From Nemertoderma westbladi (lineage: Eukaryota > Animalia > Xenacoelomorpha), in assembly GCA_032718475.1 (NCBI GenBank), contig JAUCBJ010001208.1, positions 1 to 64,000 on the forward strand: a stretch of 64,000 nucleotides of DNA, in the 5' to 3' direction. Both the position numbers and the translations under genes were made by a program. Every line of letters begins with the position of its first letter. Positions within the stretch are counted from its first letter, which is position 1. The notes below the pieces were generated by a model. It was not told the origin of the DNA and searched no databases. It saw only the letters and a program-made list of their open reading frames with translations. Shown here piece by piece: positions 3,811-24,251 of this stretch.

Positions 3811-4877
3811 CTAAACACGGAAACATCATACTTTTATGATTGTGTTGTAATTCTCTGAACTTCAAGGGAATATGAAAAGGATGTGAAATAATGCAGTTTC
3901 ACATTTTTAAGTACCAATCGGTAGTATGTCACTGTAATATATCCAGTGTATCCCTCTTGATGAATATGGTATGAATATGAATAAATTGTCCAACATTAGA
4001 GGATAGGTCTAATTAAAGACCATACTAATGTATTGAGGACAACCGTCAAAAAGACCTAACAACAGTCTGAAAAACTCACCAACAGTCAGAAAGCAGTTCC
4101 AGATAGTCTACCAACAGTCAAGGGCTTCAAAAAATTTCGATTATCTAAATAGGATTCCTTAAATTCGAAATAATCAAAATAATATCAACTGATAGCCGTA
4201 ACTCAGGAAATTATGTCATTCTGTAGTACTGTACTCTGTACTGCAGTAGGCCTACCGAGCTGACAGTTGTTTAACACAGTATTACGGAATCCGGGAATAA
4301 TGGCATGGACGTTTGTCTGATCGCTTCTGAAAGTCCAAAATACCTGCCAACGGTTATATATTATAAAATGATTACCGGTTTTAGTTTGCGGTACCGACAC
4401 AAATTATTGTACAAATTACCGGATTACGTTGCGACAGACTGTTATTTTATCATACTAGTAGCACCGGTACTGGGTACTGCAGTACCAGTAGAAGAAAAAC
4501 TGTGATTCGAACCAGTAACGGATAAGTGGCGTTGGGCAGGTGGGAGCGAATCGGATCGAATACATTTTCCTAATAATATTGAGGCTATGTTGATGGCGAT
4601 ATGTAATTATGCGATTGTAAAATATTGCGGTACGAATTCGTAGGATGCCTGGATGCCGGCATCGGGTATTCTGTCGCATCATAATCCTAAATGCTGCAAT
4701 GCGTGTTGACTTGTGTCAGTACTGCAAACTAACATGATTTTATAAGCCTTATAGAATTATATTCTCTAAATGCCGTGGATTTTCAAAATTTTTATTTTAT
4801 TCGAATTAACTTTGTTAAAAGATTACATTAAGTCCTCATTTGTATTTGCTATATCTATTTGTACGATGATTAGTCAA

Positions 4878-4964
4878 GTGGTTCAGTAGCTCAGTCGGTA
4901 GAGCGTTGGAAATTATATGTAGTGTGTATTGAGTTCGAATCCTAGTAGGTGCGAATTATTTTTT
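4878..4964 (+). ncRNA. tRNA-derived Pol III-like unit (A box, B box, T-run) inside the LTR; not a canonical tRNA
   Basis: A box TAGCTCAGTCGG 4887-4898, B box GAGTTCGAATCC 4931-4942, T-run ~4959-4964; acceptor and anticodon stems do not pair. Confidence 0.65.
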
Positions 4965-5029
4965 GTGCAGAATTTCAACTCATTTAAATTGACCGCTACA
5001 AATTAATTGCATTTGCTCGAAGTAAGATT

Positions 5030-5177
5030 AACCAATGAGACTGTAGTTATTAGATTGTAACCAATGTCGTACAAGTTATATATTTGCTGGACCAATAGCT
5101 ATCTTTAAAAACCTATTAGAACTCATAGAACAATCGAGAATTTTCTCGATTGATTGCGGCACAAATTTGGTATAAAA
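5030..5177 (+). promoter_or_regulatory. Pol II promoter of LTR: three CCAAT boxes and a TATA box
   Basis: ACCAAT at ~5031, ~5060 and ~5091; TATAAAA at 5171-5177; AATAAA at 5311. Confidence 0.6.
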
Positions 5178-7267
5178 GGTGCGATTTCGTTCATTAGTAC
5201 ACCACTTCACACTTTATATCTAAAACCTTCTATATCTCAATCATTCGTGCTTTAGATTATCTTTATTAGTTATCTATTAGTTTCTTGTTACGTTTATGTA
5301 TATCTTCTGTAATAAAGTCAGAATTATCGCTAATCTGCCCTTTTTCTATCTGTTTTACTATACTTCACCACGGTGAACTCAACTGAGGGACAGGATGGCT
5401 GGCTAAACATCGGGCCACAGCAATGAACGGGAACATCTAAGGAATGTAGACAGGAGACAACCCGCAATATCACTCTTAGTTATTCGCCCATCGCCTGAAA
5501 GGTTAGACAGCGTTCGATGCCTTGCTACCTAAGTATAAGACCAAAGATCGAAGGTAGAGGTAGTGACACGCTGTACGCCTAAAATTACATCTAGGGACTG
5601 TACTGTTTTAATTCAGGAAAAAACCGCAGTAGACCTTCATATTCCTACGGGGAGAGGAGAGAGCTCAGGCAGAGATACTAGTACGCAGATAGGACGTAGG
5701 CACACCGGTACAAAGCATACACATTGGTAGGGTGCAGCAAACTGTACGCCTAACTCTTGCTAAGTACAGGTGCGTCTGTGACTATTTGTAGTACAACGGT
5801 GTCCATTGCATTATAACTTGTAGGCCAGGAGGGTTACTGTGTTTCACCTGAATTAGGATTGTACCGTTCAGGCGGTAGGGCAGTTTACGGCTAGGCGCAA
5901 ATAAATTGAGGCTAATTAGGGATACTAACATCTACCGTGTCCCCGCCGACATCCTGATAGGAAGTTACCAAGCCCACCTAGGTAACCAAAATTCTAGATA
6001 GGACGCCAGGCTAGCTATTAGTAATTGTACGCCTACTGTAGTAAACTAACACATTTCTTCTTAGTATTAGGGACCTGGTAAATAAAATTGCCGAATTCTG
6101 GGCGTAGTATTAACCTTATGCCTGAATTTGAGTCCTGGAAATACATGAAAGGGGAAGGAGCCTTATCATTCGTGAGTATTGGACCTACAAGTTATAAAAT
6201 TAGAATATTTGCAAAATGCACACCGTACCCAGTAATTATATATATGAAGGAGCAAAACTGATCTTGACGGTTCAGAATTAACACACGCGCGTTAGAAATT
6301 ATTTACACCTCAAAATATATAAAATTAACTTTTGTCCGTACTGCGCTTTGCCCGCTAGTTAGACATCTCCAGATCTCTGCACCTAGCTAGCGTCCTTTTC
6401 GCCCAACCATATAAATCACACCGCGGCAAAGTATACGAGCCCCTTAGTCCGTCAGTGAGTCAGCCTGATTTTAGCGCGCGGGATTTTGTTTTATCGAAGT
6501 TTGTCCGTTCGTAGACTGTTTTCTGCCTCACCGGTTATAAGAGACCGATACTGCAATATATTCGCTTACTTGGAGTTTACTGTTTTGGTGAGAAGGTCGG
6601 ATTTATGATTTGATTCACAAACTTTATAGTATGATATTGCAGGATTCGTGTATTTGTTACTGTCTCTTCATATAGTAGGAATATGTTTTACTGAACTACG
6701 GTTCGGTAGGACTAAAGTTATTTGAAAATTTTGTATTTTGAGGTAAAAATTTATATTTGATTGGCTGAGTGCTAATTTTTTGAAATAAAATTTGATTTGA
6801 ACCGCGTGTAAAATATTTTGGAATTGAATACCGGTGTTTAAAAGGGTTTAAATACCATATTGTACCGGTACAAAATTTTTCGTAAAAGTAAAACCTAACT
6901 CTTTTGTTTTTCAGGATTCAGAACTCATTTCTAGACTGTAACGAGAGCAAGACCGTGTTTAGCAAGTTTGGGAGATAGATAACCCAACAACTTTGGTTGG
7001 GAAAATCGCACTTCGTCTGCAACGCTGGAAACGGAAAGGTTCACGTCCGGTTTGTATCTGGGAATTTGTTTTTCTGGAGAATCATTGGAGTGGGTGAGTT
7101 TGAAAAGTTGCATAAATAAGTTAGGCATTACCGTATTAGTTAAAAATTATTGTGGGTTCCACTGTCTCAAGTATTTATGCATTCTGTACGATTTCTTTGT
7201 TCATTGCTGAATTAGTCCGTATTATTGTATTTAATTTACCTTTTGATAACGCATATCGTTATCCGAT

Positions 7268-7392: not shown

Positions 7393-7477
7393 TGACTGTA
7401 ATTAGTACCGTTTAAATATAAATATGGTAAATTTGATACTTTGACACTCACATTTTACTTGACTTACAACTACCGAA

Positions 7478-7860
7478 ATGAGTGACAAACAAGACTATAC
7501 GAAGAATACACCTACCGACTATGACTCATGTGACGCGGATAAGTCAGCAGCGGAAGAACTACAGGGGAAGACTCGCGAGCCTACCGAACCTACACCGTGT
7601 GCGTCACCAGTACATCCAACGGGAGTACCGGATGCCGTAGTACGAGGCGACGGCAGGACCGAGGACTTTCTAACTGTTCCGCAACCTAGATACAGGGAAA
7701 CGGACATGGTAAGTTCAGCAGGAAGCCAGGAGAGCGTAGTTAGAAGCGTCGGAGGATACATGGCGCATATTACCAGGAGTATTGGAGAAGGCCAACGCAT
7801 ATTAGACGAGTTGACCGCTCCGATGTCTCGGTTTGAGTTCTACACCCTCCAGGTTAGAGT
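7478..7860 (+). pseudogene. gag: N-terminus of outer element Gag, interrupted by the inner element
   Basis: SSAGSQESVVRSVGGYMAHIT is homologous to inner-element SSLDSQ...RSAGGYMAQIT; the ORF runs into the inner LTR at 7861. Confidence 0.8.
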
Positions 7861-9204
7861 TGTATTGTATTTGGTAAGAGTATAAAAAATTTATTTTATA
7901 ATCATTATATTGTTCCGATAACTTCTACTGTACGTTTAAAGTATAAAACCTATTCTATACCTATATTCTACTATATTAATTAACGAAAATCTTATGGATT
8001 CTCTTTAAAGTTAAGTTTGTTTCAGTTCCTTTACTTACTGCAGTAGAAATACTGTACGATTTATTATGTGAAATACTACCTGATTATATGATAAATCACC
8101 AGTAGGTTAATTGTCCAGTATCTATAATTATTTCCAGATTATTATTATTATACAGTACAGTATAACTAAGCCCTGCTGGAGGTATTTTCAAATTAAGGCT
8201 TTTTAAACATGATTAGCCAATGACAGCCTTTGAATTCTTTATGCTTGTTTCAATGTAGAATTGAAGTTATATATATTCATTCATTACTCTGTTACTGCAT
8301 TAAGTACCGCAGTACCGGTACGTTATATGGTTTAATCTTTTACATTTGGACGTGTATTTAAATTTTGACAGTGTTGTTTTGCATTCAGATGTCTGATGTC
8401 TGGATGTCTTTGATATAAAACTGTGATACTGTGATACGATATTCAATATAATGTCTTAGTCGATTAGAACACGTTCAATAACATTGTTGTTCCTGATTAA
8501 CGGATCAGATCGCATTCTGACATGAGTCAATTATCGAAAACATTCGCGATGTCCGGCTAAGATTAGCTGCGGTGTGGTGAGGCCGGCAATGGGATGTGGG
8601 ACATCAGTGGCGGTACGGAAGCAAAATTGGACTATCAGGGAAGTTGATCGAACCATTAGGCATAAGTTTGGGCTCGCTAAAATTGGATTAGTAACTGTCA
8701 ATCAATTGCCCCTGAGTGCTAAGGCTGTAGGCCAATTGGTGAAGGGGTTAGATTATAGTTTTCAGAGGCCCCTATATTGATTTATAATTCATGTACCGCC
8801 AGACCGGTAGCTAGGTCTACCATAACACGTTAGGAATTCTAACTTACTAATTTTCTAATAATTATTTTAGATAGTTTGTGATCATTCTTAGGCCCTACGG
8901 ATAAATTGGTGGTTATTATAGCGCTGAGGGAACATTTGGGATGGTAAAATAGTTAGGCCATTTAATTATTTCTTTCTCAGCCCTAGTATCCTAAATTCCG
9001 TATAGATTGACAACCAAACTGTTGTAAGTATAAAATTTATTTATTTGTTTATACATATTTTGAAAGATAAAAAATTAGTATTTGCTCGTTTTGGGATTAG
9101 TTAGAAGAGCCTACTGGTCTAGCATGAATTACGAATTTTCAGCCATAATTGCTGTACATTCTGATATAGGTTTGGTTTATTATTTTGGTTGCTGGTGTTT
9201 TACA
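7861..9204 (+). repeat. 5' LTR of inner element (right end inferred at ...TTTTACA 9204)
   Basis: First 812 bp duplicated at 15527-16338; the end is chosen from TGTA...TACA symmetry and a downstream GTA...TATG context like the outer element's. Confidence 0.7.
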
Positions 9205-10114
9205 GTACTTTATATGTTAGCCTTTACTGCCTGCCAAAATCGAACGACAAATATCTATTGAACTTACTTATTGTGAGCGCTGCTGTAAAAAGGTGTTGAG
9301 GTCTCCACCATTGAATTAAAACATTTACTCGCAATAGCGATAGCTTTCCCTCAGTTTTGATCTCGGTTAATTCTGCCCTTTCGGGGGATTTGGGATTGCA
9401 CTTAACAGAAATCAATATAAAAATAAATCCCAGCTGATTTACAAAATACTTAGCAAATAACATTTTTAGAAAATAATCAGTCTTTCTGTAATTATTCCGT
9501 TTTGCAGAAATACAAAATATTTTCTGGGATTAAAATATCAGCTCCAAAATTATGTAAAGGAGGTTGAATAGATATTAGGTAGCCAAAAAGGTTAAAAATT
9601 TAAATTTAAAGTTTATTTGCAGGAAATAAAATTAGTAGGCGCCGTTTAAAGTTTCTATACGACTTTCAGGTACAGAGGGAGACTTTCCAACTGATTCTGG
9701 GATCTGTTGATGTTTACGAGTTTGGTACAAAAAAGAAGTTTGCAGAATGAAAATCTGCAGCTCAGATTGGGACGCGAGGAAAATTGAAACTGCTCCTGGG
9801 GTTAGTTGCATTACCTGTATCTCTGTGTCTGTGAGACCTGTGAAAGTTTTGCGGCAAGTTAATTTTATGATTTATTTAAATGCTTCCAGTTTGTCCACTA
9901 TGTTTTAAGAACTCCACATCTTTGCCGTGCTGGGAAACCGTTACGCCTATTATATTTGTGTATAAAAAATATAATATTTGAAGGAAATATTAAAAATATT
10001 TTAGAAATTTTACCGCTGTAGAAGCAGCACAACTTCAAGTAAAATTAGAAAATATATTTAGATATATACTGTCCAGAAGGTTATACAGAAATACAGAATT
10101 AAAATTTACCGACC

Positions 10115-13100
10115 ATGAGTATGCATAGGACATCGACTATACAGGACATAACTCTAGTAGGTTCTGACTCAAACGATGACGAAATAGAGGAGGTGGTGAG
10201 AGTAAGTAGTTTAGATTCACAAAGAGGGCCACCGATAAGTAGGAGTGCTGGTGGGTATATGGCACAAATTACAAAGTGCACAAACAAGGTAATTACATTA
10301 TTATTACAAGAGGGTGCTACATTAGACAGACAAAAACTTTTGGAGTTACAAGGTAAGTTTAACACCCAGATGATCCATCCAGTAGCTGAACTACAAGCTC
10401 TTGTGGATAGAGCAGAAAAATATCAAGAGAATAAAACCCTGACTTTCTTATTCGAGAAATTGAAAAAGGCAAGAGTGAGTTATATAAGAGTAATTGAACA
10501 CTTTTCCCAAATTCGTAATACACGATGGAGCGAAGCAGTTTGTGAATCTCTAACAGTCAATGAAGTCGAGTTTAGAGAATCAGAGAAACGTATTGTGGTT
10601 GAGACTCAGCATCGAGTTACTAAATTAACCCGTTACTTAAGTAAGAGAGGAGTAGTTATCATTGGATTACCATTGCCATTAACTGCAAACCAAGAGACAG
10701 TGAGTGGGTTAAACAGTGGAGCGGAAGTTTTATCTGTTGCCAGCCAAAGCACAACAAGGTCGCGACGAAGTACGAGTGTAGTATGTAGTCGGAGTTCGAT
10801 AACAGAATCACAAAAGGCCCTGCGAGCATTCACAGAACGAGATAGACTAATTGCAGTTGAAGAGAGAAAGCTCGAAGTAGAGGAAGCGCGTAGGCAGGAA
10901 GTTGAACTCGCTGAAGAGGAGATACATAAATTAGCAGCACAAGAAGCAGATTTAAAGCAGCAAGAGCAGCATGAGGAAGCAGCAGCTAAATTTAGGCGTG
11001 AAGCACAAGCTGCAGCCCAAGAAGCAGAGCATTTGCGTGATGAATTGCAGAGGCAACAGCGTGAAGCAGCGGCAAATTTAGCGCATCAACATGCACTGAG
11101 ACGCGCACAAGTAGACGAAAAGCGAAGAGAATTAGAATTAAAGCAACGAAGGCGTATCCATGAGATTGAAATGCAACATAAGCGAGCTCAGTTGCAAGAT
11201 GCACGGCTTGAGTTGGTAAATGATAGGCAGCAGTATGAAGAAAGAAGAAGAATTGCGAAACTCATAAAACGCGAGATTGGGATACGTTTACATATAACCT
11301 ATTGGACTGATGCCACTTTAGTATTAATGTACTTAAATATTGATGATGTACAATTTAAGACATTTGTTGCAAATCGGAAAGCCGAGATTTTAGATTTTAC
11401 TATCAAAGAAGACTGGCGTCACTGTCCGGGTGATCGCAACCCCGCAGACATTGCCTCGCGAGGAATGATGCCGACGGAGTTTTGTCAACCAGATAATCAA
11501 GATTTCTGGCTGCATGGACCCAAATTCTTAAGGAAGTCAACAGAGCATTGGCCTCCAATCTTTCACTGCCACTTACATAAACTTCCACCGGAAGCGGAGA
11601 TTAAGATCGAGAAAGTAAAGAAGTCAAAGGCGAAGGCCACAGGTTTATCCCATATACCAACATTATTGACTGATCAGGTAATGTCAAATAATTATATGGA
11701 GCGGCCGAGAAATGCCATGAGTGAACAGATGTTAGACAGAAATGAGATTACGTCCCGTACCACATTATATAATCTAAGATCGCGAGTGACACATACAAGT
11801 GATATAGTTCCTACGTCGTTACCACCGCCAAATCCGCCAGATTCAGATATTAATTTAGAGATTGAGTCCGAAGTTGACCTAGCCCTAGATATATCAGACG
11901 ACGATGAATATATTGACATGCATCCAGTTCCTGGTGATGAAAAATTCGATGAAGTAAAAGCGATATTTCTAGAATCACCCTTGACCAATAGTAAGCAAGA
12001 TCTTGTAAAAAATGTGGCATCACAGCCACCGCCTAATGTTATGGTAACACAACCACTTAACAGTAATTTAAGGAATTTCTTTGACAGGTTAGTAAATTCC
12101 AGTTCATCTTGGCTAAAGCTATGTAGGAAAGCCGCTTGGATCAGTAGACTTAGTAAATTCTTGGGTAAATCAAAGGAATACTCACTATCTGATTGGAGAC
12201 AAAGGGTTATTAGAGGATTTCCCAGGAGACTATCTATCGAGGAAATAGACCAGGCGGAATTGAAGATCATCCTTCATTTTCAGCTGCGAAGTTACACCCG
12301 TGAGTACAACGCCATTATGATTAAGAAAGCGGTTACTTCTTCCCCATTAGTCAGGTTGAGCCCGACCATACACAAAGGACTGCTTTGTCACAGGTCTAGA
12401 TTACAAGCTACAGACCTAGCACGAGACTTCATATATCAAATTATAATCCCGGCATACTTAGAATTACAATGCGCCATGATATGGGATGCTCACTTGAAGC
12501 TGAAACATGCTGGCCGTTCACATTGCATCTCTTTGTTAAGACAACGTTTTATTTTAATAAAACCAACAAAGGCATTAAATACAGTTCTATCAAACTGTAT
12601 AGTTTGTAAAAAGTTGAACGCACGCATTACCCAGCAACAAATGAGTGAACTACCCTTAGCTAGAGTGCAGTCACACCAATCACCATTTACCCATACGGGA
12701 CTGGATTGTTTTGGTCCAATCCTCACAAAGCGTGCACGGTCGATGGTAAAACGTTGGGGTGTCATATTCATTTGTATGGCATCCCGTGCGGTACACATTG
12801 AACGCGTCACAGACATGTCCACAAATGCCTTATTACTTGCTTTGCGTCGGTTCATAGCCAGACGCGGGTTGGTTCAGGCTTTCTCTAGTGACCAAGGTAC
12901 GAACTTTGTCGGTGGGGACAACGAGATTAATAAATCTCTTAATACTATTGACCATGATAAAATTGCTGCCGAATTAATACCCAGTCGTATCACATGGAAC
13001 TTTAACACGGCTGACAGCCCCTGGAGAGGCGGTAGCTGGGAGCGTCTTATACGATCCATAAAATTGGCGTTCCATAAGACCATCCCACCGAACAAAGTAC

Positions 13101-13684
13101 TCACAGATGATGAACTAGTGACTCTTTTCACAGAGATCGAGTATACTTTGAATTCTCGACCGATTGCACTGGTGCCAGACAGGTCAGACAACGTTATTGC
13201 CCTGACACCAAACCATATATTAATGCAATCTCCCGCACCACTTGTACCAATCTCTGTCCCAGATGACAGCGATCTGTACTCCAGGAAAGCGTGGAAAATC
13301 GTACAATTGTTAGCAGATAACTTCTGGGAAATATGGCGACAACACTATTTGCCCACTATTTCAGCCAGAAGTAAATGGTATCAAACAACAAGGAATCTTT
13401 GTAAAGGAGATTCTGTTCTCTTAGCCGAGGCGAACCTAAAACGGCGTCACTGGTTAACAGGTGTTGTAATAGCGGTTCATCCAGGATCAGACGGAACAGT
13501 TCGAACTGTGACAGTTAGAACACTAGACAAACATGTAGTAACTAGACCAGTGCAACATCTCGTTTTATTAGAAGAGTCACGTTGTCAGACTGGAGACTAC
13601 AAAATCTTTAAAAAACCCAGTGATTATACTTCCCACAAATTATATGAGACAGGAAATGTAAAAACCTCCAAGAAGACAAAGTAA
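10115..13684 (+). CDS. Inner BEL polyprotein with in-frame deletion: Gag N-terminus/coiled coil fused to RNase H C-terminus and integrase (no protease or RT)
   Basis: YWTDA..VL, FVANR, WRHCPGDRNPADIASRG, WLHGPKFL (BEL RNase H/linker); H-H-C-C zinc finger; GLDCFGP, SDQGTNF, GGSWERL (DDE); no YVDD or DSG motif. Confidence 0.9.
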   Translation: MSMHRTSTIQDITLVGSDSNDDEIEEVVRVSSLDSQRGPPISRSAGGYMAQITKCTNKVITLLLQEGATLDRQKLLELQGKFNTQMIHPVAELQALVDRAEKYQENKTLTFLFEKLKKARVSYIRVIEHFSQIRNTRWSEAVCESLTVNEVEFRESEKRIVVETQHRVTKLTRYLSKRGVVIIGLPLPLTANQETVSGLNSGAEVLSVASQSTTRSRRSTSVVCSRSSITESQKALRAFTERDRLIAVEERKLEVEEARRQEVELAEEEIHKLAAQEADLKQQEQHEEAAAKFRREAQAAAQEAEHLRDELQRQQREAAANLAHQHALRRAQVDEKRRELELKQRRRIHEIEMQHKRAQLQDARLELVNDRQQYEERRRIAKLIKREIGIRLHITYWTDATLVLMYLNIDDVQFKTFVANRKAEILDFTIKEDWRHCPGDRNPADIASRGMMPTEFCQPDNQDFWLHGPKFLRKSTEHWPPIFHCHLHKLPPEAEIKIEKVKKSKAKATGLSHIPTLLTDQVMSNNYMERPRNAMSEQMLDRNEITSRTTLYNLRSRVTHTSDIVPTSLPPPNPPDSDINLEIESEVDLALDISDDDEYIDMHPVPGDEKFDEVKAIFLESPLTNSKQDLVKNVASQPPPNVMVTQPLNSNLRNFFDRLVNSSSSWLKLCRKAAWISRLSKFLGKSKEYSLSDWRQRVIRGFPRRLSIEEIDQAELKIILHFQLRSYTREYNAIMIKKAVTSSPLVRLSPTIHKGLLCHRSRLQATDLARDFIYQIIIPAYLELQCAMIWDAHLKLKHAGRSHCISLLRQRFILIKPTKALNTVLSNCIVCKKLNARITQQQMSELPLARVQSHQSPFTHTGLDCFGPILTKRARSMVKRWGVIFICMASRAVHIERVTDMSTNALLLALRRFIARRGLVQAFSSDQGTNFVGGDNEINKSLNTIDHDKIAAELIPSRITWNFNTADSPWRGGSWERLIRSIKLAFHKTIPPNKVLTDDELVTLFTEIEYTLNSRPIALVPDRSDNVIALTPNHILMQSPAPLVPISVPDDSDLYSRKAWKIVQLLADNFWEIWRQHYLPTISARSKWYQTTRNLCKGDSVLLAEANLKRRHWLTGVVIAVHPGSDGTVRTVTVRTLDKHVVTRPVQHLVLLEESRCQTGDYKIFKKPSDYTSHKLYETGNVKTSKKTK

Positions 13685-15526
13685 AATAAAGTGTACTTTA
13701 TTTTACTGTGGTGTTCTAGTGCTCGATATTCCAGTGTCTGTTATGTGTATTTCGGATTACGTCCGATTACACATAGGAGCGGATTATTGTGTACTGGAAT
13801 ACCGACAACACTTTTATTATTTATTACATCCCATTTGAATTTGAAAATCATATGAATTTCGAAAATGATATTGCTAAAAAATGTTACTACTAAAGTGTGT
13901 TTACAGTAGCGAGTCGCAGTTGTGAAAGTTACCCTACAAGAACCTGAAGTAATTCTAAGCCCTTGGGACGGACAGTGGAGTGACTCGTGCTGGTTGTTGT
14001 AGTCGTTGTGCAGCTACGACGTTGGCGATAGGCACAGCGGCGACAATACATCAGCGCTGAGGATCTTGCGCTGTCCGGGCGGCATTGAGGGGGAGGCAGC
14101 TCACACGCTCCCTGATATATTTACAAAAAGTTAAATAATTTTAACTAGTTGATTTATTTAACTTTAAATTTGTGTCAAAAAGATTGGAGTACTACATCTG
14201 GAGGCTGTAACATTAAATTATTTTATCAAAAAGGGTCTCACAGATATATTGGCACGGGTATTGTAGCTGTCTTAGGGGTATGTTTAAAACATGTTTTGTA
14301 GAAGGGGAGACAGATCCCAAAATCAAGATATCTCTTTATTGATTAACACTTTATTGACATAATTTCTCTCTAAATTTCTTAGATAGTAATAAAAAAAAAA
14401 AAAAAAAAAAGCGAATGATTTTGTTTCGCAAATGTCAAAATTTGGGGTCAGCGCTAGAATAAGATAATTTAATATCAATTGGTTGACAAACGCTGAACTG
14501 ATGGAGGTAAACCCAGGCTTAGCTGAAAGTTTGTGATACTGTACCTGCCATTCATCCATCCATCAATAATCTTTCTATAAGTTACTAGTTACAGGATGGT
14601 ACCGCATAAGAACCTGTTGACATACCCCATCGATTTGAACTGTGGATGCGATCGAAATATCTGGCGATACAGAAAAGATATTGCGCCATCTGATGGTTGA
14701 TGAGTGGAAAAGGAGGGGGGGATGAAAGGTTCTACCCGAACTCCCATTGATACCGGCCATCAGCGGAGTTGGAACAGTAAGAAAGAATTCCAGAATACAC
14801 AAATCCCATACGAGCGTTCGATGCGAAGTAATTGCGATTGGGCTGGATGTGACCGACGTTGTCACTGCCGATTGCAATACCAGGATTAGGGCGGGGTTTG
14901 AGATCCTAATATTTGACCCATTTCAGACACAAATCAAACTAATGCGATCGAGAGCGAAGAATTTATGCTCAAGGCGATCATATATTTACCTAGTCATTCT
15001 TACTGTAACATTGGGATGTGTCAACGAGATAATACTACAACAAACCCTGCGCCCTTTAAATCCTGGAAACCAATACCATCGTCCCACTGGTATTTTTTTT
15101 ATAAGTCTTATATGCTTAACGTCTTATATGCTTACCGTCTTATATGTTTACCTAATCATATATTAGCCTCAATTTATTTACGATGTTAACAAATATTTCA
15201 CGAACTCATTCGATTTATATTATTTATGCCTTAGTAAAAGGTAGTTACTACCTGACAAGGTACTAAAAGTGAACCGGACTCTTACAATATTTTAAGAAAA
15301 TGTGTAAGTCAGTCCTATTATTATGCAAGATATTTTATGTAATAATTGAAATAATTCAGATAAATCTTTGTGTTATAGGTAGTATGTTATACAATTGTAT
15401 GTCCTTTTGAAATATTGATAAATTTAGATTAATCTAGTATATTCTACATAATTTTATATAGTAGTTTTAGATTTATTCGGTATGTCCGGTGATGGGATCA
15501 GAGCGTTAAACGTCTGATCGGAGCGG

Positions 15527-16338
15527 TGTATTGTATTTGGTAAGAGTATAAAAAATTTATTTTATAATCGTTATATTGTTCCGATAACTTCTACTGTACG
15601 TTTAAAGTATAAAACCTATTCTATACCTATATTCTACTATATTAATTAACGAAAATCTTATGGATTCTCTTTAAAGTTAAGTTTGTTTCAGTTCCTTTAC
15701 TTACTGCAGTAGAAATACTGTACGATTTATTACGTGAAATACTACCTGATTATATGATAAATCACCAGTAGGTTAATTGTCCAGTATCTATAACTATTTC
15801 CAGATTATTATTATTATACAGTACAGTATAACTAAGCCCTGCTGGAGGTATTTTCAAATTAAGGCTTTTTAAACATGATTAGCCAATGACAGCCTTTGAA
15901 TTCTTTATGCTTGTTTCAATGTAGAATTGAAGTTATATATATTCATTCATTACTCTGTTACTGCATTAAGTACCGCAGTACCGGTACGTTATATGGTTTA
16001 ATCTTTTACATTTGGACGTGTATTTAAATTTTGACAGTGTTGTTTTGCATTCAGATGTCTGATGTCTGGATGTCTTTGATATAAAACTGTGATACTGTGA
16101 TACGATATTCAATATAATGTCTTAGTCGATTAGAACACGTTCAATAACATTGTTGTTCCTGATTAACGGATCAGATCGCATTCTGACATGAGTCAATTAT
16201 CGAAAACATTCGCGATGTCCGGCTAAGATTAGCTGCGGTGTGGTGAGGCCGGCAATGGGATGTGGGACATCAGTGGCGGTACGGAAGCAAAATTGGACTA
16301 TCAGGGAAGTTGATCGAACCATTAGGCATAAGTTTGGG
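15527..16338 (+). repeat. Truncated 3' LTR of inner element
   Basis: Identical to 7861-8672 apart from ~3 SNPs; breaks at AGTTTGGG and joins outer integrase sequence. Confidence 0.93.
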
Positions 16339-16340: not shown

Positions 16341-17192
16341 CTGTCCAGTAGGGCAGTTCATATTGAACGTGTGATGGATCTTTCCACCAACGCGTTTATA
16401 CTAGCATTGCGGCGATTTATTGCTAGACGCGGATTAGTGAAATGCTTGTACTCAGACCAAGGGACAAACTTTGTTGGTGCCCGAAATGAAATTGCTAGAG
16501 CCTTTAAGAAATTAGATCATGATCAAATCTCAAACGAACTACGTCCTTACAAGATTGTTTGGAAGTTTAATCCTCCAGATAGTCCATGGAGAGGCGGAGT
16601 CTGGGAGAGATTGATTAGATCTATAAAAACAGCCATGGCAAAAGTAATTCCAGTAAACCACATTTTGACAGACGACCAACTGACAACACTGTTTGTTGAA
16701 ATCGAGGCAATACTAAATACTAGACCAATAGTATTAGTACCCGATGACAAACAATCTCAGTTTGCTTTGACACCGGCACACCTGCTTATGCAGGCACCGA
16801 CTACATTAACGCCTATTTCTTTTCCAATGGAAGGCGATAGCTACGGTAGAAAAGCGTGGAAAATCACGCAACTACTAGCTAACAAATTCTGGGAAATATG
16901 GCAAAACCATTATTTGCCCTCTATTTCTGCCAGAACAACATGGTACAATAACACCCGCGCATTAAAGCCGGGAGATCACGTGCTGTTAGCAGAAGTGAAT
17001 CTAAAAAGACGCTTCTGGATAACAGGTGTAATTTTAGACACACATCCATCTATGGATGGAGTAACAAGAACTGTGACGGTACGGACAATTGACGGTCGTA
17101 CAGTTGACAGAACGACTCAACATCTCGTACTTCTTGAAGAGACTCGAAACGAGTCTGGAGACTACAAATCTCCAACAAATGTTAGTAAATAA
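16341..17192 (+). pseudogene. C-terminal half of outer element BEL integrase
   Basis: SRAVHIE, SDQGTNFVGA, PWRGGVWERLIR, LNTRP, LTPAHLL, FWEIW...YL motifs; a paralog of the inner integrase; first catalytic Asp lost in the deletion. Confidence 0.92.
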
Positions 17193-17789: not shown

Positions 17790-17821
17790 ACTAACTACAA
17801 ACTCTGTTGTATTCCCTCTAG
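17790..17821 (+). promoter_or_regulatory. Splice acceptor in front of the third ORF
   Basis: Branch-point ACTAAC (17790-17795), pyrimidine tract CTCTGTTGTATTCCCTCT, AG 17820-17821; ATG follows at 17853. Confidence 0.55.
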
Positions 17822-17852
17822 TAGTAATGATTATGTAACTGCACCTCTAATT

Positions 17853-20021
17853 ATGGAGAAGGAGATACATGGAGAGCCGAGATGGGGATATGATATCCAA
17901 GAGGAAGCAGCAGCGCCATTCGAGAGATTTGGAGCCAAAGACTACACTATATTTGGTATAAAAGAATTATCAGAAAGTACTGCGAAACTCGCGAGAACTA
18001 AATATGACTCGAATGTATTAAAGAGAAGGCAAAACGCATTAAATGAAAGAATCGAAAGTTTGCGCAAAACCTTCAATGAACTTTACCCGTACGACGCTTT
18101 GTGTGATACGGGAGACATTAGCGAAGACCCCGATACTGAAATTAGTCGTTTGTATCATACCATGCAATACCTAAAGACGCACGAACCTATGCCTGCGGTA
18201 CGAGATGAATTTGATGGAATGCATCTTTACAGACGAACTCGAGGGGACGATAGAGAAACAAAGGAAGCATTTTCAGTTTATAAACTTTATTATCAATGTG
18301 GTTCTTGTATGCGCGAACAACGAAATGCGATTCCGATGCGTTTGAATAAGGAAAATCCCGAACCGATATTGGCGAGGTGTTCGAACCATCAACGACTACG
18401 CTACCAGGAAGGAGGGTATCCTTTATCAAATCCATATCATTCGTTTGCTATGACTGGACCAAAGGCGGGAGAAACTGTCGTTTACCCACCTAAGGTTGTT
18501 GAACCCAATGCATTTGAACTTACGCTGGATGAGGCGAATCAGTCAACCCGCGAAAAGAAAGAAGCTCTTAGCCTATACAGAGCCTACAAGGCTTTTGAGA
18601 AAGGTGAGATGGAAGAATGGGGCGGAAGACTCGCGAGCCTACCTTACCATTGGACGTCACACGATCAAACTCCAGCTAAGGAGATGACACCGGAAGTTTT
18701 CGAGAGCATAAACTTTGCTCAAAATGTTATTCAGAGACTACAGATTGCATCCCCGGAGAGGACAAGAGAAATGCAACCATATAGTACTTCGACTACGAAA
18801 CCATTGAGTACGACACTCAATTTTCCTATTAGTATACCAGTCCGACAGGATACGACGTACGAAATACTCATCGTGGATCATCCAGAAATTATTTCGAACT
18901 TGGAGTTTCTTCCTGCAGTTGTTTTTAGCGATATAAGTAAGATATATGATTTACGTAGACATATTACTCAAAAGGTCGTGTATAACGTTCTACCTCATAT
19001 TCAAGACTTTAGAGAATTGGATAGAGCTGGTGCTGATATAGCTCCGAGTAATTTGAAAGGATATTTAACCAAAACGATTCGTTTATGGATTGGAACTGGA
19101 ACCTTCGAGTCGGATACAGATATTGCCGCGGATTGGCGAGGTAAGGTTATTCGTTTCGAAGATGATAAGGACATAGAGAAGATTTGGCAACCTTCGGAAG
19201 AATTGTTGGACGAATGGAATAGAACGTTTAGATCGTTTCAGGAAAATGGTTACATGTTTTACGATAACGAGGGCGGCAGTCATCAACAGAGTTTGACTTC
19301 TAAGACTATACAAATTAGAGCGGCGGACGGAGTCTTGCACGTTTTCAGTAGACAGAGGAGCGACAAACGAATGCCGATACCTCCAGCAAATACAAAGCGA
19401 CACCATCTCATCACTGACATAGTAAAGAAGATGGACCAAGCTTGTAATATCGATGCTAGAATGCTACCGAAGATGGTAAGAAATATGATTTTAGATAAAA
19501 CTGTTGTAAAGATTGGATCAGGAGTAAGAGAGGACTTAATTAGCGACTTCGCCGACATGACGGACAGCGATGACCGACTACCGACACCGTACGTCGACAC
19601 TCGACCTCTTATCTTGTGGTCTATAGAACAAGGGTATTTTCGTGAGTATAATACTCAGAAGACCGGAACTGGATACATTTCCTACCTGTTATTCAATTGG
19701 GATTATAAGGAAAGTAAGAGAGCCAAGTATATTGAGACTTATGGAGAAGGTGATACTCCAGATATGAGTGAGTTTGAATCACAGCTCAAATGGAGAGGAT
19801 GCGTGTATTGGGCTATTACGTCACCTCCAAGAGCGGTCCTACAATATTATTTAGCAATAGAGTCATCAGTGAATGTTTGCTTAATCGCCGACATTGTGTC
19901 TCAGACTCTTAAAAGACATCCACTTTGTCTCGGAGATGATCATACGTTCTACAAGGAAGGGAGAATTCATACCGACGTGTTTAGACGATTTCTTGAATGC
20001 CTTTACTCGAGCAGGATTTAG
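17853..20021 (+). CDS. ORF3 part 1: protein with a C-terminal DEDDy 3'-5' exonuclease domain (WRN/EXD/RNase D-like)
   Basis: ExoI MFYDNEG, IQIRAADGVLHVF, LPKMVRNMILDKTVVKIGSGVREDL (ExoII), YVDT, ExoIII-like W....PRAVLQYYLAIE; the track ORF opens at 17745 on a non-ATG codon. Confidence 0.7.
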   Translation: MEKEIHGEPRWGYDIQEEAAAPFERFGAKDYTIFGIKELSESTAKLARTKYDSNVLKRRQNALNERIESLRKTFNELYPYDALCDTGDISEDPDTEISRLYHTMQYLKTHEPMPAVRDEFDGMHLYRRTRGDDRETKEAFSVYKLYYQCGSCMREQRNAIPMRLNKENPEPILARCSNHQRLRYQEGGYPLSNPYHSFAMTGPKAGETVVYPPKVVEPNAFELTLDEANQSTREKKEALSLYRAYKAFEKGEMEEWGGRLASLPYHWTSHDQTPAKEMTPEVFESINFAQNVIQRLQIASPERTREMQPYSTSTTKPLSTTLNFPISIPVRQDTTYEILIVDHPEIISNLEFLPAVVFSDISKIYDLRRHITQKVVYNVLPHIQDFRELDRAGADIAPSNLKGYLTKTIRLWIGTGTFESDTDIAADWRGKVIRFEDDKDIEKIWQPSEELLDEWNRTFRSFQENGYMFYDNEGGSHQQSLTSKTIQIRAADGVLHVFSRQRSDKRMPIPPANTKRHHLITDIVKKMDQACNIDARMLPKMVRNMILDKTVVKIGSGVREDLISDFADMTDSDDRLPTPYVDTRPLILWSIEQGYFREYNTQKTGTGYISYLLFNWDYKESKRAKYIETYGEGDTPDMSEFESQLKWRGCVYWAITSPPRAVLQYYLAIESSVNVCLIADIVSQTLKRHPLCLGDDHTFYKEGRIHTDVFRRFLECLYSSRI

Positions 20022-21000
20022 TATATTTCGAGACGTGTATCTTCGCTGTGCGGGATCTCTTATCGAAAGACCGTCTATGTTTACATTGTTACCCTATGAA
20101 GGAGAACGTATCGTGGAGATTACGGATGAATCACGGCAGACGCGCGCGCCTATCGGTCACCTTGGTGATGATTTCGAAGTAACGACTACGATCACTGACG
20201 ATCCTTTAGAGGAACTTCTTGAGATAGAAAGGAACCTCCCGAAGAAATCTCAGACGGAGATTCGACAACTTGAAGCAACAGATGCTGTAGTTTGTATACA
20301 ACCTTCAGAAACCTACCAACCCATAGATCCAGATGATTATGATTATAGTGTGGGAGGAAGCGCTCGACCAATTGGAGATCTTATATACGAACGAGTGTGG
20401 TACCCTGCCAATACGATGTGTGGTAAATGTGGTGTCGCTGGACATCATTCGACCAAGTGCAGTGGAAAGCACATTACTACGACTCAACTAATCTGTGGAT
20501 GGTGTGGAGATCAAGGGTCTCATACCTTTTATACTTGCTGGAGATTTATGGCTCAATGTACTTATTGCAATATAAAAGGGCATCGAGCATCTGAATGCCA
20601 ACTAAGAGACATACCTTATGAACACGAATCTGTAAAACTCGTGAGAAACCTATTCGATGAGTGGGAAGATTTAGCCGACGAACATGTATCGGCACAAAGA
20701 AGACGATTTCCGATGAGAGCGCATCTTGGATTTTGGGCGGTAAATCCCCAAACGATGATGTCGGAAGGATACATCTCCGCTATGCCCCAATATGACGAAC
20801 TTATCGAGGTAGTCGATATTTTGCCTCACGACAGTGGATTCCGAGTGGTGCGTGAGTATCTATTACAGATTCACCCGGACAACAAGAACACGTGGAATTT
20901 TCAGAAAGTCGTAAATCGTATCACGTATGGTGAATTTGATCGTTTCCGAACTGAAAAGCGGAATAAGGGAGCTTGGTTAACCGTCGCATGGGCATACTGA
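19894..21000 (+). CDS. ORF3 part 2: three CCHC zinc knuckles
   Basis: CGKCGVAGHHSTKC, CGWCGDQGSHTFYTC, CTYCNIKGHRASEC; overlaps part 1 in the +1 frame. Confidence 0.75.
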   Translation: MCLRLLKDIHFVSEMIIRSTRKGEFIPTCLDDFLNAFTRAGFSIFRDVYLRCAGSLIERPSMFTLLPYEGERIVEITDESRQTRAPIGHLGDDFEVTTTITDDPLEELLEIERNLPKKSQTEIRQLEATDAVVCIQPSETYQPIDPDDYDYSVGGSARPIGDLIYERVWYPANTMCGKCGVAGHHSTKCSGKHITTTQLICGWCGDQGSHTFYTCWRFMAQCTYCNIKGHRASECQLRDIPYEHESVKLVRNLFDEWEDLADEHVSAQRRRFPMRAHLGFWAVNPQTMMSEGYISAMPQYDELIEVVDILPHDSGFRVVREYLLQIHPDNKNTWNFQKVVNRITYGEFDRFRTEKRNKGAWLTVAWAY

Positions 21001-21549
21001 GCCGCGTTTTACCACAAACGTATACGAGCGAGCGTGTTCGAGGAAGAGGAGATCCTAGAGGTGACAAATATACCAGCCACTCCGGTTGAGCCGTCTGCAC
21101 GTCACCCTTGGGAGGACGGACAGGGTAGGATCATAAGGGTCCAGAAAGTGAGCCAACAATTAAAGAAGTCTATTAATATAGAAGAACGCAAGGGAGTTGA
21201 GCCGACCATTCGAATTACTCGGGATACGGTATCGCTTCCTAGAGAACCAACAGGAGGATCGGGACATACACCAGCTGATCAAAAGGGGGCGCAAGCTACT
21301 CTTGGGTCTGCGTCGTCCGCTTCCCGCGCGTTCCCAGACGTTTTACCAACTGTAGTGACAACTGATCGGTCACGAGGAATCGGTCGAGGTTTTGGGATAC
21401 CAAATAGACGAATTTGTGAGGAAACGGTCGCACCGTCTCCCAACGTACAAGCGAAACCAGTAACTCGCCCCACGAGTCCCATATCGCGGGCAAAGTCACC
21501 TGTGCGCAGTTTTCGAGGACGCGGCAGGGCTCGATCTACTAAGCGATAA
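21001..21549 (+). CDS. ORF3 part 3: disordered Pro/Ser/Arg-rich tail with RG repeats, in frame after the TGA at 20998-21000
   Basis: The same frame stays open across the stop (AWAY*AAFYHKRIRASVFEE); ends RSFRGRGRARSTKR. Confidence 0.6.
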   Translation, partial: AAFYHKRIRASVFEEEEILEVTNIPATPVEPSARHPWEDGQGRIIRVQKVSQQLKKSINIEERKGVEPTIRITRDTVSLPREPTGGSGHTPADQKGAQATLGSASSASRAFPDVLPTVVTTDRSRGIGRGFGIPNRRICEETVAPSPNVQAKPVTRPTSPISRAKSPVRSFRGRGRARSTKR

Positions 21550-22319
21550 AAGGGAGGGCAAGGGTGGACGGAAGATTCGTGAGCCTTTCTTGTGAATTTG
21601 TGATTTATTTGATTAGTAAGTTTTGTATTCTGGAAGAACTCATATTTAGTAAGATTTATATTTAGTAAGAATTTATATTTTGCAAGATTTATATTTTATA
21701 TTTGTGATTATTCCGAACTTATGCAATTTATATTGTTCCGAATACTATGCAATTTATATCTTATAAGCAGTATTTGTATTTACAGTGAAATAGAAAGTAA
21801 GAGTAGATGGAAGACTCGTGGGCCTTTCTTATAGTTTCATTTGTAAAGTGTTATATTTGTATTTAGAAAGTTTTATAGTTAGAAAGTTTTGTACTTAGAA
21901 AGACTCATATTTGTAATTATTCCGAACTTATGCAATCTACATTTAGGCACGAAAGTATTTGTAATTATTTGAATTTATGCAATATTTGAGATGCAATAGT
22001 AGATGGAAGACTCGCGAGCCTTTCTTATGATTTTCATTTATTTGTATTTGTAATTATTTGAATTTTGCAATATTGAGATGCAATAGATTTATATTGGTGA
22101 ATTTAATTTAGATTTATATTGTACTTACTTAGTAAAGCCTTAAATACGTAAAGTTTGAATTTGTAATTATTTTGTATCGAATCATTATGTAGAAAGGAAG
22201 TATTGTTTGAAATTTAATTTGTAAATATGTAAGTACGCCCTAAGTATTCTATAATTTGATTGATTATTGGTGAAAACCGTATATTTTATGCACGATAATA
22301 TCCTGTTTTCATGGAGCGG

Positions 22320-24251
22320 TATAGAATTATATTCTCTAAATGCCGTGGATTTTCAAAATTTTTATTTTATTCGAATTAACTTTGTTAAAAGATTACATTA
22401 AGTCCTCATTTGTATTTGCTATATCTATTTGTACGATGATTAGTCAAGTGGTTCAGTAGCTCAGTCGGTAGAGCGTTGGAAATTATATGTAGTGTGTATT
22501 GAGTTCGAATCCTAGTAGGTGCGAATTATTTTTTGTGCAGAATTTCAACTCATTTAAATTGACCGCTACAAATTAATTGCATTTGCTCGAAGTAAGATTA
22601 ACCAATGAGACTGTAGTTATTAGATTGTAACCAATGTCGTACAAGTTATATATTTGCTGGACCAATAGCTATCTTTAAAAACCTGTTAGAACTCATAGAA
22701 CAATCGAGAATTTTCTCGATTGATTGCGGCACAAATTTGGTATAAAAGGTGCGATTTCGTTCATTAGTACACCACCACACACTTTATATCTAAAACCTTC
22801 TATATCTCAATCATTCGTGCTTTAGATTATCTTTATTAGTTATCTATTAGTTTCTTGTTACGTTTATGTATATCTTCTGTAATAAAGTCAGAATTATCGC
22901 TAATCTGCCCTTTTTCTATCTGTTTTACTATACTTCACCACGGTGAACTCAACTGAGGGACAGGATGGCTGGCTAAACATCGGGCCACAGCAATGAACGG
23001 GAACATCTAAGGAATGTAGACAGGAGACAACCCGCAATATCACTCTTAGTTATTCGCCCATCGCCTGAAAGGTTAGACAGCGTTCGATGCCTTGCTACCT
23101 AAGTATAAGACCAAAGATCGAAGGTAGAGGTAGTGACACGCTGTACGCCTAAAATTACATCTAGGGACTGTACTGTTTTAATTCAGGAAAAAACCGCAGT
23201 AGACCTTCATATTCCTACGGGGAGAGGAGAGAGCTCAGGCAGAGATACTAGTACGCAGATAGGACGTAGGCACACCGGTACAAAGCATACACATTGGTAG
23301 GGTGCAGCAAACTGTACGCCTAACTCTTGCTAAGTACAGGTGCGTCTGTGACTATTTGTAGTACAACGGTGTCCATTGCATTAGAACTTGTAGGCCAGGA
23401 GGGTTACTGTGTTTCACCTGAATTAGGATTGTACCGTTCAGGCGGTAGGGCAGTTTATGGCTAGGCGCAAATAAATTGAGGCTAATTAGGGATACTAACA
23501 TCTACCATGTCCCCGCCGACATCCTGATAGGAAGTTACCAAGCCCACCTAGGTAACCAAAATTCTAGATAGGACGCCAGGCTAGCTATTAGTAATTGTAC
23601 GCCTACTGTAGTAAACTAACACATTTCTTCTTAGTATTAGGGACCTGGTAAATAAAATTGCCGAATTCTGGGCGTAGTATTAACCTTATGCCTGAATTTG
23701 AGTCCTGGAAATACATGAAAGGGGAAGGAGCCTTATCATTCGTGAGTATTGGACCTACAAGTTATAAAATTAGAATATTTGCAAAATGCACACCGTACCC
23801 AGTAATTATATATATGAAGGAGCAAAACTGATCTTGACGGTTCAGAATTAACACACGCGGGTTAGAAATTATTTACACCTCAAAATATATAAAATTAACT
23901 TTTGTCCGTACTGCGCTTTGCCCGCTAGTTAGACATCTCCAGATCTCTGCACCTAGCTAGCGTCCTTTTCGCCCAACCATATAAATCACACTGCGGCAAA
24001 GTATACGAGCCCCTTAGTCCGTCAGTGAGTCAGCCTGATTTTAGGATTCGCTGCGCGGGATTTTGTTTTATCGAAGTTTGTCCGTTCGTAGACTGTTTTC
24101 TGCCTCACCGGTTATAAGAGACCGATACTGCAATATATTCGCTTACTTGGAGTTTACTGTTTTGGTGAGAAGGTCGGATTTATGATTTGATTCACAAACT
24201 TTATAGTATGATATTGCAGGATTTGTGTATTTGTTACTGTCTCTTCATATA
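22320..24251 (+). repeat. 3' LTR of outer BEL element (includes second tRNA-like unit ~22448-22534)
   Basis: Near-identical to 4750-6674; followed by TSD AGCCT. Confidence 0.95.

Follow-up and report, generated by a model that had tools for sequence, protein, structure and literature searches.

A broken third gene of a BEL/Pao retrotransposon, with a predicted DEDDy exonuclease and zinc knuckles

In the window (the whole 64,000-nucleotide stretch of Nemertoderma westbladi DNA that we analyzed), the third open reading frame (ORF3) of a BEL/Pao retrotransposon belongs to an accessory gene that is broken here but is a single ORF in other copies. This is a real gene: it lies in the env slot, it is common to distant BEL/Pao elements, and it is under purifying selection. 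We predict that it encodes a DEDDy 3'-5' exonuclease of the WRN/EXD type. We also suggest, with rather less than even confidence, that ORF3 is a self-contained RNA-trimming unit that blunts host RNA defences.

The outer element and its broken third gene

The element that carries ORF3 (the outer element) has these features:

4745..4749, + strand, left copy of the 5-bp target-site duplication (right copy at 24252-24256; sequence inspection)
4750..6674, + strand, 5' LTR, with termini TA...TA instead of TG...CA
6675..6685, + strand, primer binding site (PBS) position; its first letters are not TGG, and it has an 11-nt reverse complement within the LTR at 5638-5648
7463..7860, + strand, start of gag, truncated by the nested element
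7861..16338, + strand, nested second BEL/Pao-type element (terminal repeats and ORF 10103-13684)
16343..17192, + strand, C-terminal part of the integrase with DUF5641 (PF18701, E = 5e-21), with its stop at 17192
22313..22319, + strand, purine-rich tract (PPT); the identical 7-mer precedes the inner 3' repeat
22320..24251, + strand, 3' LTR

Judging by its LTRs, 5-bp target-site duplication, PPT, and integrase with DUF5641, the outer element belongs to BEL/Pao, as the first-pass annotation of this DNA had it. The integrase is 31-34% identical to those of L001-L005, whose gag-pol has Peptidase_A17. The LTRs are 99.2% identical (9 substitutions and 7 gap columns in a pairwise comparison), so this copy inserted recently, and its family occurs as many variants. 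Run X5, whose RNA origin is only a guess, contributed 5 short contigs. An Rfam search over 4700-24300 gave no result, nor did ARAGORN.

This copy is non-autonomous and is interrupted by a nested LTR element. We did not find protease or reverse transcriptase (RT) in the outer copy, so the gag-pol order PR-RT-RH-INT, which is present in L001 and L005, has been lost here. In other copies, the sequence runs on upstream as integrase (contigs have loose ends at 16342). The nested element has 812-bp repeats (7861-8672 and 15527-16338) that differ by 3 substitutions, and its ORF has a gag-like start, an RNase H end, and an integrase. The ORF gave no protease or RT match, and the nested element has no exonuclease ORF. 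The inner and outer gag starts are 38% identical over 50 amino acids (E = 4e-5).

Between the integrase/DUF5641 stop and the 3' LTR, the ORF listing of the window has open frames at 17733-20021 (first ATG at 17853), 19885-21000, and 21001-21549. These are the three collinear ORFs of the first-pass annotation, and they encode 714 + 333 + 182 = 1229 amino acids. Their features are:

17853..19151, + strand, N-terminal ~430 amino acids, with a CxxC...CxxH motif inside
19152..19916, + strand, predicted DEDDy 3'-5' exonuclease domain, WRN/EXD2 type (motifs and profile comparisons)
19263 (D) and 19269 (E), + strand, Exo I, the D-x-E motif
19533 (D), + strand, Exo II, K-x-G-S-x4-D
19848 (Y) and 19860 (E), + strand, Exo III, Y-x3-E
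19995..19996, + strand, frame break from a 29-base deletion, within the apparent ORF overlap
20419..20598, + strand, three CCHC zinc knuckles (20419-20460, 20494-20538, and 20557-20598)
20650..20740 (approximate limits), + strand, conserved segment 3' of the knuckles, with the pattern F-E-x-W/F-A ... R ... GF in the alignment
20998..21000, + strand, in-frame stop
21001..21549, + strand, C-terminal piece with an R/S/P-rich basic tail (ORF listing and composition)

The ORFs had been joined by a +1 frameshift and an in-frame TGA. Both breaks are present, but the true frame break is at ~19995, and it and the stop are private to this copy. Two contigs from run X4 bridge the frame break with a 29-base gap, and there are loose ends in X2 and X3; other copies thus have 29 more bases here. 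At the stop, another base makes up over 99.9% of the depth in each of 4 runs. ORF3 is a single long ORF in the family, as had been expected. Because both breaks are private, they reflect decay, and recoding by a programmed frameshift or by read-through is ruled out.

ORF3 is not an env gene either. The highest Kyte-Doolittle averages over 19-residue windows are 0.68-1.38 in the three pieces and 0.91-1.20 in four relatives, so the signal peptide and transmembrane anchor of a retroviral-type env are both lacking, which agrees with the earlier reading.

Relatives and selection

Four distant BEL/Pao subfamilies (L001, L002, L004, and L006) have the exonuclease, three CCHC knuckles, and the basic tail in an unbroken ORF of 755-784 amino acids, 3' of a gag-pol with Peptidase_A17, RVT_1, and DUF5641. 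P0001 has the same architecture. A profile of these five proteins, searched against 1027 six-frame pieces of the window, picked out the first piece of ORF3 (E = 5e-10, 35.3 bits) and the second (E = 1e-4, 18.5 bits). The best scores from 1000 shuffles of each piece were 6.4 and 8.0 bits. Word-seeded protein searches for relatives of ORF3 found only P0001. Viral contigs, prokaryote genomes, and PHROGs yielded nothing, and plasmids gave chance-level matches or none.

Among the L relatives (6 pairs), dN/dS is 0.080-0.155 for the exonuclease and 0.137-0.248 for the knuckle region. Of the 40 differences listed for 19150-20150 within the window's family, 31 are silent (33% would be expected), and none alters a catalytic residue. 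Amino-acid divergence (pN) is lower for the exonuclease than for RT-integrase in all three comparable pairs (0.058, 0.117, and 0.114 versus 0.103, 0.131, and 0.139). The gene is deeply conserved, in that elements with just one-third identity between their integrases have it in common, and its exonuclease is at least as constrained as pol. Since the ORF is present in other copies and in distant BEL/Pao subfamilies, a one-off captured host fragment is ruled out. The first-pass annotation had named such a capture, or a lack of conservation of the acidic residues, as counting against its idea, and we found neither; it had also asked about purifying selection, which is present.

ORF3 of the relatives probably has its own internal promoter. 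Ahead of it, the distance between TATA and TTAGT is 32-34 nt in all four subfamilies, with no intervening ATG before the start codon, and just 4-16 of 5000 resampled spacers reproduced this arrangement. In the window, we found no TATA/Inr match from 17192 to 17853.

The predicted exonuclease, its knuckles, and known systems

The DEDDy motifs lie where the first-pass annotation had placed them. All 6 sequences, which share 25-27% identity, keep the D and E of Exo I and the D of Exo II. For Exo III, the four L proteins have Y-x3-D and the window and P0001 have Y-x3-E (read by eye; MAFFT offsets this motif). Human EXD2 was the profile's top match among 177,635 PDB sequences (E = 0.0076; the next was at 0.6). 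The three Exo motifs aligned in order, Exo III only as a non-significant second stretch. Exo I also aligned to DnaQ (E = 0.027), and Exo I and II aligned to the proofreading domain of a phage Pol A (hhalign 67%, pairwise E = 5e-5). In the Atlas, 25 of P0001's 30 matches are PF01612 clusters, at 0.94. The window's own Atlas match also points to PF01612, though weakly (0.90, with 159 features in common and a recognition of 2280). With PF01612 in Pfam, none of the 6 members reaches the gathering score (the best is P0001, E = 0.043-0.2), and no piece of the window's ORF matches. Single-sequence AlphaFold models, one for the window's domain and one for P0001, have pLDDT of 33, so fold searches from them are uninformative.

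Each single match is weak, the models are poor, and none of the three best Atlas clusters has a name, so the motifs might resemble those of a DEDDy exonuclease by chance. We consider this highly improbable, as five libraries or comparisons indicate the same superfamily, with the motifs in order. These converging matches lead us to predict a DEDDy fold with an intact two-metal site.

The N-terminal region has no relative that we could find: no Pfam family, a best PDB match of E = 0.34, and nothing in L001-L006. Another copy's contig spans 17912-19798 without gaps, with 95 differences. All three knuckles of the first-pass annotation are present. They score under the Pfam cut-off (zf-CCHC, E = 0.011) and align with the knuckles of relatives. 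The knuckles of P0001 are most similar to retroviral nucleocapsid (E = 1e-4), with AIR2 as a weak PDB match (E = 0.064). The ORF3 knuckles are unlikely to derive from BEL/Pao Gag because their spacing is unlike that of the Gag knuckles of L001. The first-pass annotation had called the tail RG, but just 4 RG dipeptides occur in the 182 amino acids of this piece; the tails of the relatives are RS/SR-rich.

In cellular RNA decay, Air2, a knuckle RNA adaptor, works with Rrp6, a DEDDy 3'-5' exonuclease. This is no more than an analogy, as ORF3 would combine knuckles and exonuclease in one polypeptide, and would be EXD2-like rather than Rrp6-like. Some nematode Cer elements may have an exonuclease-like domain, but our literature search did not find a description of one. 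Like human EXD2 (PDB 6K17; PMC6648332) and WRN/EXD/Nibbler (PF01612), ORF3 has Exo I as D-x-E, Exo II as K-x-G-x5-D, D-T/L, and a candidate Exo III as Y-x3-D/E, in the same order and with similar spacing. Unlike EXD2, which is a remote match, it lacks a transmembrane anchor, has fused knuckles, and is encoded by a retrotransposon.

A DEDDy ORF3 has been published for the Juno and Vesta LTR retrotransposons and the Athena/Terminon elements of bdelloid rotifers (Rodriguez, Kenefick, and Arkhipova 2017, PMC5408684); the first-pass annotation had mentioned such ORFs in rotifer LTR elements. The rotifer ORF3 of Juno, Vesta, and Athena is likewise a non-env gene, 3' of pol, of DEDDy type, with its catalytic residues kept and no transmembrane segment (PMC5408684). 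As far as the published description allows a comparison, the carrier here differs in being BEL/Pao, and the nearest solved relative is EXD2, with D or E as the last acid, whereas the rotifer proteins relate to RNase D, with the motif DEED (PMC5408684). Here the exonuclease is also fused to a trio of CCHC knuckles with an RS/RG tail. In the rotifer study, "zinc knuckle" and "CCHC" are absent from the main text, which notes a Cys-His-Cys motif in two ORFs (PMC5408684). Purifying selection and the probable internal promoter also set the BEL/Pao ORF3 apart.

In its LTRs, its PPT, its third gene in the env slot, and the PR-RT-RH-INT gag-pol of its relatives, the outer element resembles Belpaoviridae/Semotivirus (PMC8742986). 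However, in the ICTV profile of Belpaoviridae every third gene listed is env-like, LTRs measure 0.2-1.2 kb, and the primers are tRNA-Arg/Gly (PMC8742986). The LTRs of the window's element are 1.93 kb long with TA...TA termini, and its PBS does not start with TGG. The first-pass annotation knew of no knuckle-fused exonuclease ORF in BEL/Pao, and our search of the main text of open-access papers, outside Repbase and GyDB, found neither a BEL/Pao nor a knuckle-fused one. The accessible text of PMC3118150, PMC11662393, PMC6431247, PMC9094657, and PMC12440569 has no mention of a BEL/Pao exonuclease ORF that we could find. Exonuclease cargo is itself already a published kind, and its range now takes in one more LTR-element superfamily. 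The unbroken natural copies in L001, L002, L004, and L006 make its function, which the rotifer study left open (PMC5408684), directly testable.

What the third gene may do

Retroviral accessory genes mostly serve in counter-defence. If ORF3 blunts host RNA defences, it would be made from its own mRNA (given the TATA/Inr of the relatives), and so its product would act in trans, outside the polyprotein. The knuckles and tail would grip RNA and bring the exonuclease to the element's ribonucleoprotein, where it would shorten free 3' ends. We consider its likeliest targets to be the small RNAs that guide silencing or their precursors, or nucleic-acid by-products that set off defence. Nibbler, a host enzyme of the predicted class, does trim small RNAs (PMC5622571). 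Against counter-defence, Nibbler supports silencing instead of opposing it (PMC5622571); in rotifers, the presence of ORF3 was not clearly linked to copy number (PMC5408684); the strong conservation of ORF3 is equally compatible with a role in replication; and the last acid is E, not D, in the window and P0001. If the enzyme does act on small RNAs, it would be one of few examples of an animal retrotransposon that actively counters silencing.

Alternatively, nucleocapsid-like knuckles might bring the exonuclease into the particle to assist replication. There it might trim the primer, remnants of RNA:DNA hybrids, cDNA ends that are mispaired or non-templated, or RNA fragments that block the PBS. 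This is possible, if on the unlikely side, and the replication cycle of LTR elements would then include a further enzyme. The nucleocapsid match of P0001 and the low divergence of the exonuclease relative to RT-integrase fit such a role, as do the activity of EXD2 on RNA, DNA, and RNA-DNA hybrids (PMC6648332, PMC13425236) and the proposal that rotifer ORF3 processes 3' ends of element RNA (PMC5408684). Also, the window's non-TGG PBS, with its LTR complement, could need a trimmed primer. But ORF3 is a separate gene outside the polyprotein, apparently with its own promoter; L elements carry it despite an ordinary TGG-type PBS; and the nested relative in the window (65% identical) shows no exonuclease ORF.

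It is improbable that ORF3 is a non-catalytic RNA adaptor, akin to the dead-exonuclease RNA binders of animals, that carries or localizes element RNA or decoys host piRNA factors. The three knuckles and the basic low-complexity tail would suit it, the last acid departs from the canonical D in two of three lineages, and Maelstrom and EXD1 have been named as inactive DEDD RNA binders (Rodriguez 2017, PMC5408684). However, the acids of Exo I and II are invariant, and Exo III is kept as Y-x3-D/E in all. Still more improbable is that ORF3 is self-limiting or serves the host by helping to make small RNAs against the element or viruses. Enzymes of the Nibbler/Mut-7 class do promote silencing (PMC5622571), such a role was considered for rotifers (PMC5408684), and accessory domains in general have been argued to serve host defence (PMC6338049). 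Yet such elements should lose out in competition (an argument made in PMC5408684), and the window's family has many variants and a recent insertion.

Returning to counter-defence, a more detailed version seems doubtful to us: that an old, undescribed branch of BEL/Pao encodes, from an internal promoter, an active EXD2-like nuclease with a triple-knuckle adaptor that destroys piRNA or siRNA guides or their precursors, with the trimming of an LTR-RNA self-primer as a possible further role in the window's family. Self-priming is not supported as the general purpose of ORF3 because L001, L003, L004, and L005 have a TGG-type PBS and L003 (the sole one checked) has no self-complement of at least 6 nt. 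In the window, the 11-nt self-match of the PBS was equalled by just 12 of 5000 Markov-resampled LTRs, yet an 11-nt match also occurs at 5 leader positions.

ORF3 in the window and in its family

The third gene (ORF3) of the outer BEL/Pao element, found in the env slot, is conserved, under selection, and stands alone. In the window it lies, as the first-pass annotation had described, in three collinear pieces. They sum to 1229 amino acids and are placed between an integrase remnant with DUF5641 and the 3' LTR:

4750-6674, + strand: 5' LTR of the outer element, paired with 22320-24251
17733-20021, + strand: ORF3 piece 1, open reading frame, first ATG at 17853
19885-21000, + strand: ORF3 piece 2, open reading frame
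21001-21549, + strand: ORF3 piece 3, open reading frame
22320-24251, + strand: 3' LTR of the outer element, paired with 4750-6674

The exonuclease motifs and the three CCHC knuckles are where that annotation had placed them, and it was right about the lack of a transmembrane anchor (no hydrophobic segment above KD 1.38 in any piece). It had also joined the pieces into a single ORF by a frameshift and an in-frame TGA. The single ORF holds for the family, but both lesions are private to the window copy. We compared contigs from four DNA sequencing runs (X1-X4; at most three samples, from three studies, under one organism label) with 16300-22400. All 30 bins were covered in all four runs by many variants of the outer element's family; X1 gave 6488 contigs, mostly 90-99% alike; the depth should not be read as copy number. 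Each run had another base in >99.9% of the depth at the stop site (20998-21000). Among the contigs listed for the frame break at ~19995, none of them from X1, two from X4 span the site and show a gap of 29 bases; those of X2 and X3 have loose ends at this point. The differing stop base and the gap imply that the lesions are private. One X4 contig runs ungapped across 17912-19798 and has 95 differences. Thus, the search for ORF3 in other copies that had been proposed found family variants in 4/4 runs, and the family has ORF3 as one ORF.

The outer insertion is young: its two LTRs are separated by 9 substitutions and 7 gap columns, and it sits between the copies of a 5-bp target duplication. The LTRs are 1.93 kb, over the ICTV range, and begin and end with TATA (4750-4753, 6671-6674, 24248-24251); their termini are TA...TA rather than TG...CA. 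(The LTRs of L003 and L005, two of the related loci below, start with TG yet seemingly end with TA.) After about 130 codons, gag is interrupted by an 812-bp repeat whose copies (7861-8672 and 15527-16338; 3 substitutions) frame a second BEL/Pao-type element. The inner ORF (10103-13684) matched an RNase H end and an integrase, with no protease or RT match, and we saw no exonuclease ORF in the inner element. Inner and outer integrases share 65% identity. The outer element picks up again mid-integrase at about 16343, and in other copies the integrase extends upstream of this point (loose ends of run contigs). ORF3 is therefore part of the outer element, whose copy in the window is non-autonomous. 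No target duplication borders the nested element (7861-16342). Its 3' repeat includes about 10 nt of PBS-side sequence beyond the apparent LTR end, and the junction lacks most of the outer gag-pol. The arrangement reflects either an aberrant integration event or two insertions that recombined with each other.

Relatives, selection and the exonuclease domain

Among 1.84 billion representatives searched, the single match was P0001 (648 aa, E = 1.3e-4), known here as a protein alone. It has in common with the window's ORF3 the exonuclease motifs, the three knuckles and the segment that follows them. With a two-sequence alignment as the query, 187 candidates in metagenome contigs yielded six loci (L001-L006) in four subfamilies (72-81% nucleotide identity; L003 near L004, L005 near L006). 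They come from two assemblies, probably of one host, and are not independent hosts. The gag-pol of L001 and L005 has Peptidase_A17, RVT_1, integrase and DUF5641. In L001, L002, L004 and L006, gag-pol is followed by about 570-650 nt and then an unbroken ORF3 of 755-784 aa; ORF3 is frameshifted in L003 and ends with the contig in L005, and the pol of L004 has an early stop. Identity between the window and these loci is 31-34% for integrases and 25-27% for exonuclease domains. A profile built without the window recovers, from among 1027 pieces, both piece 1 (E = 5e-10) and piece 2 (E = 1e-4), with scores far over those of 1000 shuffles. A search for relatives of the N-terminal 430 aa of the window's ORF3 found none.

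dN/dS by region of ORF3 (Nei-Gojobori, 6 pairs among the four subfamilies)
Exonuclease: 0.080-0.155
Linker: 0.070-0.147
Knuckle region: 0.137-0.248
Tail: 0.29-0.43

Purifying selection, a check the first-pass annotation had proposed, is evident in the exonuclease values and within the window family. At 19150-20150, where 40 of 47 differences are listed, 27 of the 40 are at third positions and 32 are at transition-silent sites; one of these is a transversion, which leaves 31 silent (33% expected). The sole listed difference in the catalytic codons is silent. For the N-terminal part, the count was 10/19 listed differences (p = 0.06). The exonuclease also diverges less in amino acids than RT-integrase in 3/3 pairs. 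pS is lower in the exonuclease (0.47-0.60) than in pol (0.76-0.82) for L001, L002 and L005/L006, which may reflect exchange of ORF3 between subfamilies or silent-site constraint.

The domain is very probably a DEDDy exonuclease, with a predicted active site. The Exo I D and E, the Exo II K-x-G-S-x4-D and the D-T motif are invariant in 6/6 sequences, so the acidic residues whose conservation had been in question are kept. At Exo III, the L proteins have Y-x3-D, and the window and P0001 have Y-x3-E. Among 177,635 PDB sequences, human EXD2 was the top profile match (E = 0.0076; runner-up 0.6). That match aligned Exo II, while Exo III came up in a second, weak stretch; Exo I aligned in other comparisons. 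A DnaQ match covers Exo I (E = 0.027), and Exo I and II aligned with the proofreading domain of a phage Pol A. In Atlas, a feature-based protein cluster resource, 25/30 matches to P0001 were PF01612 clusters (0.94, 174 features) and the window query gave a weak lead (0.90, 159); the three top clusters were unnamed for both. None of the six family members passed the Pfam cut-off and both single-sequence models were unusable, so the fold is a predicted one.

Expression, priming and possible roles

The spacer in front of ORF3 retains CCTATAAA and TTAGT at a distance of 32-34 nt in 4/4 subfamilies, between diverging flanks and with no ATG from this pair to the start codon. The pattern arose in 4-16 of 5000 resampled spacers. 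We take it to be a TATA/initiator pair; the usual spacing is 30-31, slightly shorter than here. This suggests a separate mRNA for ORF3 in the L subfamilies. The window's spacer has no match of this type and contains two possible splice acceptors. Conserved non-coding blocks after pol (L001 7358-7560, with counterparts in L002, L004 and L006) comprise a short hairpin, a CGCGCGCG palindrome and a purine-rich block, and are possible packaging or dimerisation signals.

The outer PBS position (6675-6685) does not start with TGG. Its exact 11-nt complement lies inside the LTR at 5638-5648 (about 23208-23218 in the 3' LTR) and begins at an initiator-like sequence. Such complementarity occurred in 12 of 5000 controls; the comparison is post hoc, and five leader positions have an 11-nt match. 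By analogy with Tf1/Tj1 (PMC4600332), self-priming is possible in the window's element. The L relatives have a TGG-type PBS, which rules out self-priming as the general purpose of ORF3. The LTR also has a competing TATA/TTAGT pair at 6410-6448, a TATA box at LTR position 422, and a tRNA-like A-box and B-box (4887-4942 and 22457-22512) without an ARAGORN or Rfam call, possibly a Pol III promoter or a SINE-derived piece.

The BEL/Pao ORF3 with its predicted exonuclease is real. We found no report of a BEL/Pao exonuclease ORF in the main text of open-access papers, and the ICTV profile has only env-like third genes for BEL/Pao (PMC8742986). As the first-pass annotation had noted for rotifer LTR elements, DEDDy ORF3s are known from rotifers (Juno, Vesta and Athena elements), with function untested there; Rodriguez et al. 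2017 know of no earlier report in retrotransposons (PMC5408684).

We tentatively favour counter-defence, in which the knuckles and tail of ORF3 would grip RNA and its product would work in trans on a presumed host-defence target. Patchy retroviral accessory genes act mostly against host defence, and separate expression would suit a trans-acting factor. Also, host enzymes of the DEDDy class shape small-RNA 3' ends (PMC5622571). Only slightly less probable is a role in replication: ORF3-type knuckles match nucleocapsid, EXD2 cuts RNA, DNA and hybrids (PMC6648332, PMC13425236), and the exonuclease domain is conserved to the same degree as pol.

Other features of the window

The outer element is flanked on both sides by fibronectin type II exons and is probably within an intron of an opposite-strand host gene:

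3605-3898, - strand: fibronectin type II exon (PF00040, E = 2e-9)
27786-28166, - strand: fibronectin type II exon (PF00040, E = 1e-7)

At about 43700-57500 is a Polinton/Maverick-like element with an rve integrase (E = 5e-5) and an adenovirus-type protease (E = 9e-6); capsid-like and protein-primed polymerase ORFs were seen by eye, without a Pfam match. Pieces of a non-LTR retrotransposon lie at 25845-27130, 32872-33326 and 41626-42519 (endonuclease-like, RVT_1 at E = 5e-8, DUF6451). Positions 1-2500 are a tandem satellite with a 17-bp unit (at least 100 overlapping matches), and a dispersed repeat of 1.2-1.4 kb (29912-31363 and 59424-60916) is 94% identical between copies, with an internal periodicity of ~163 bp.
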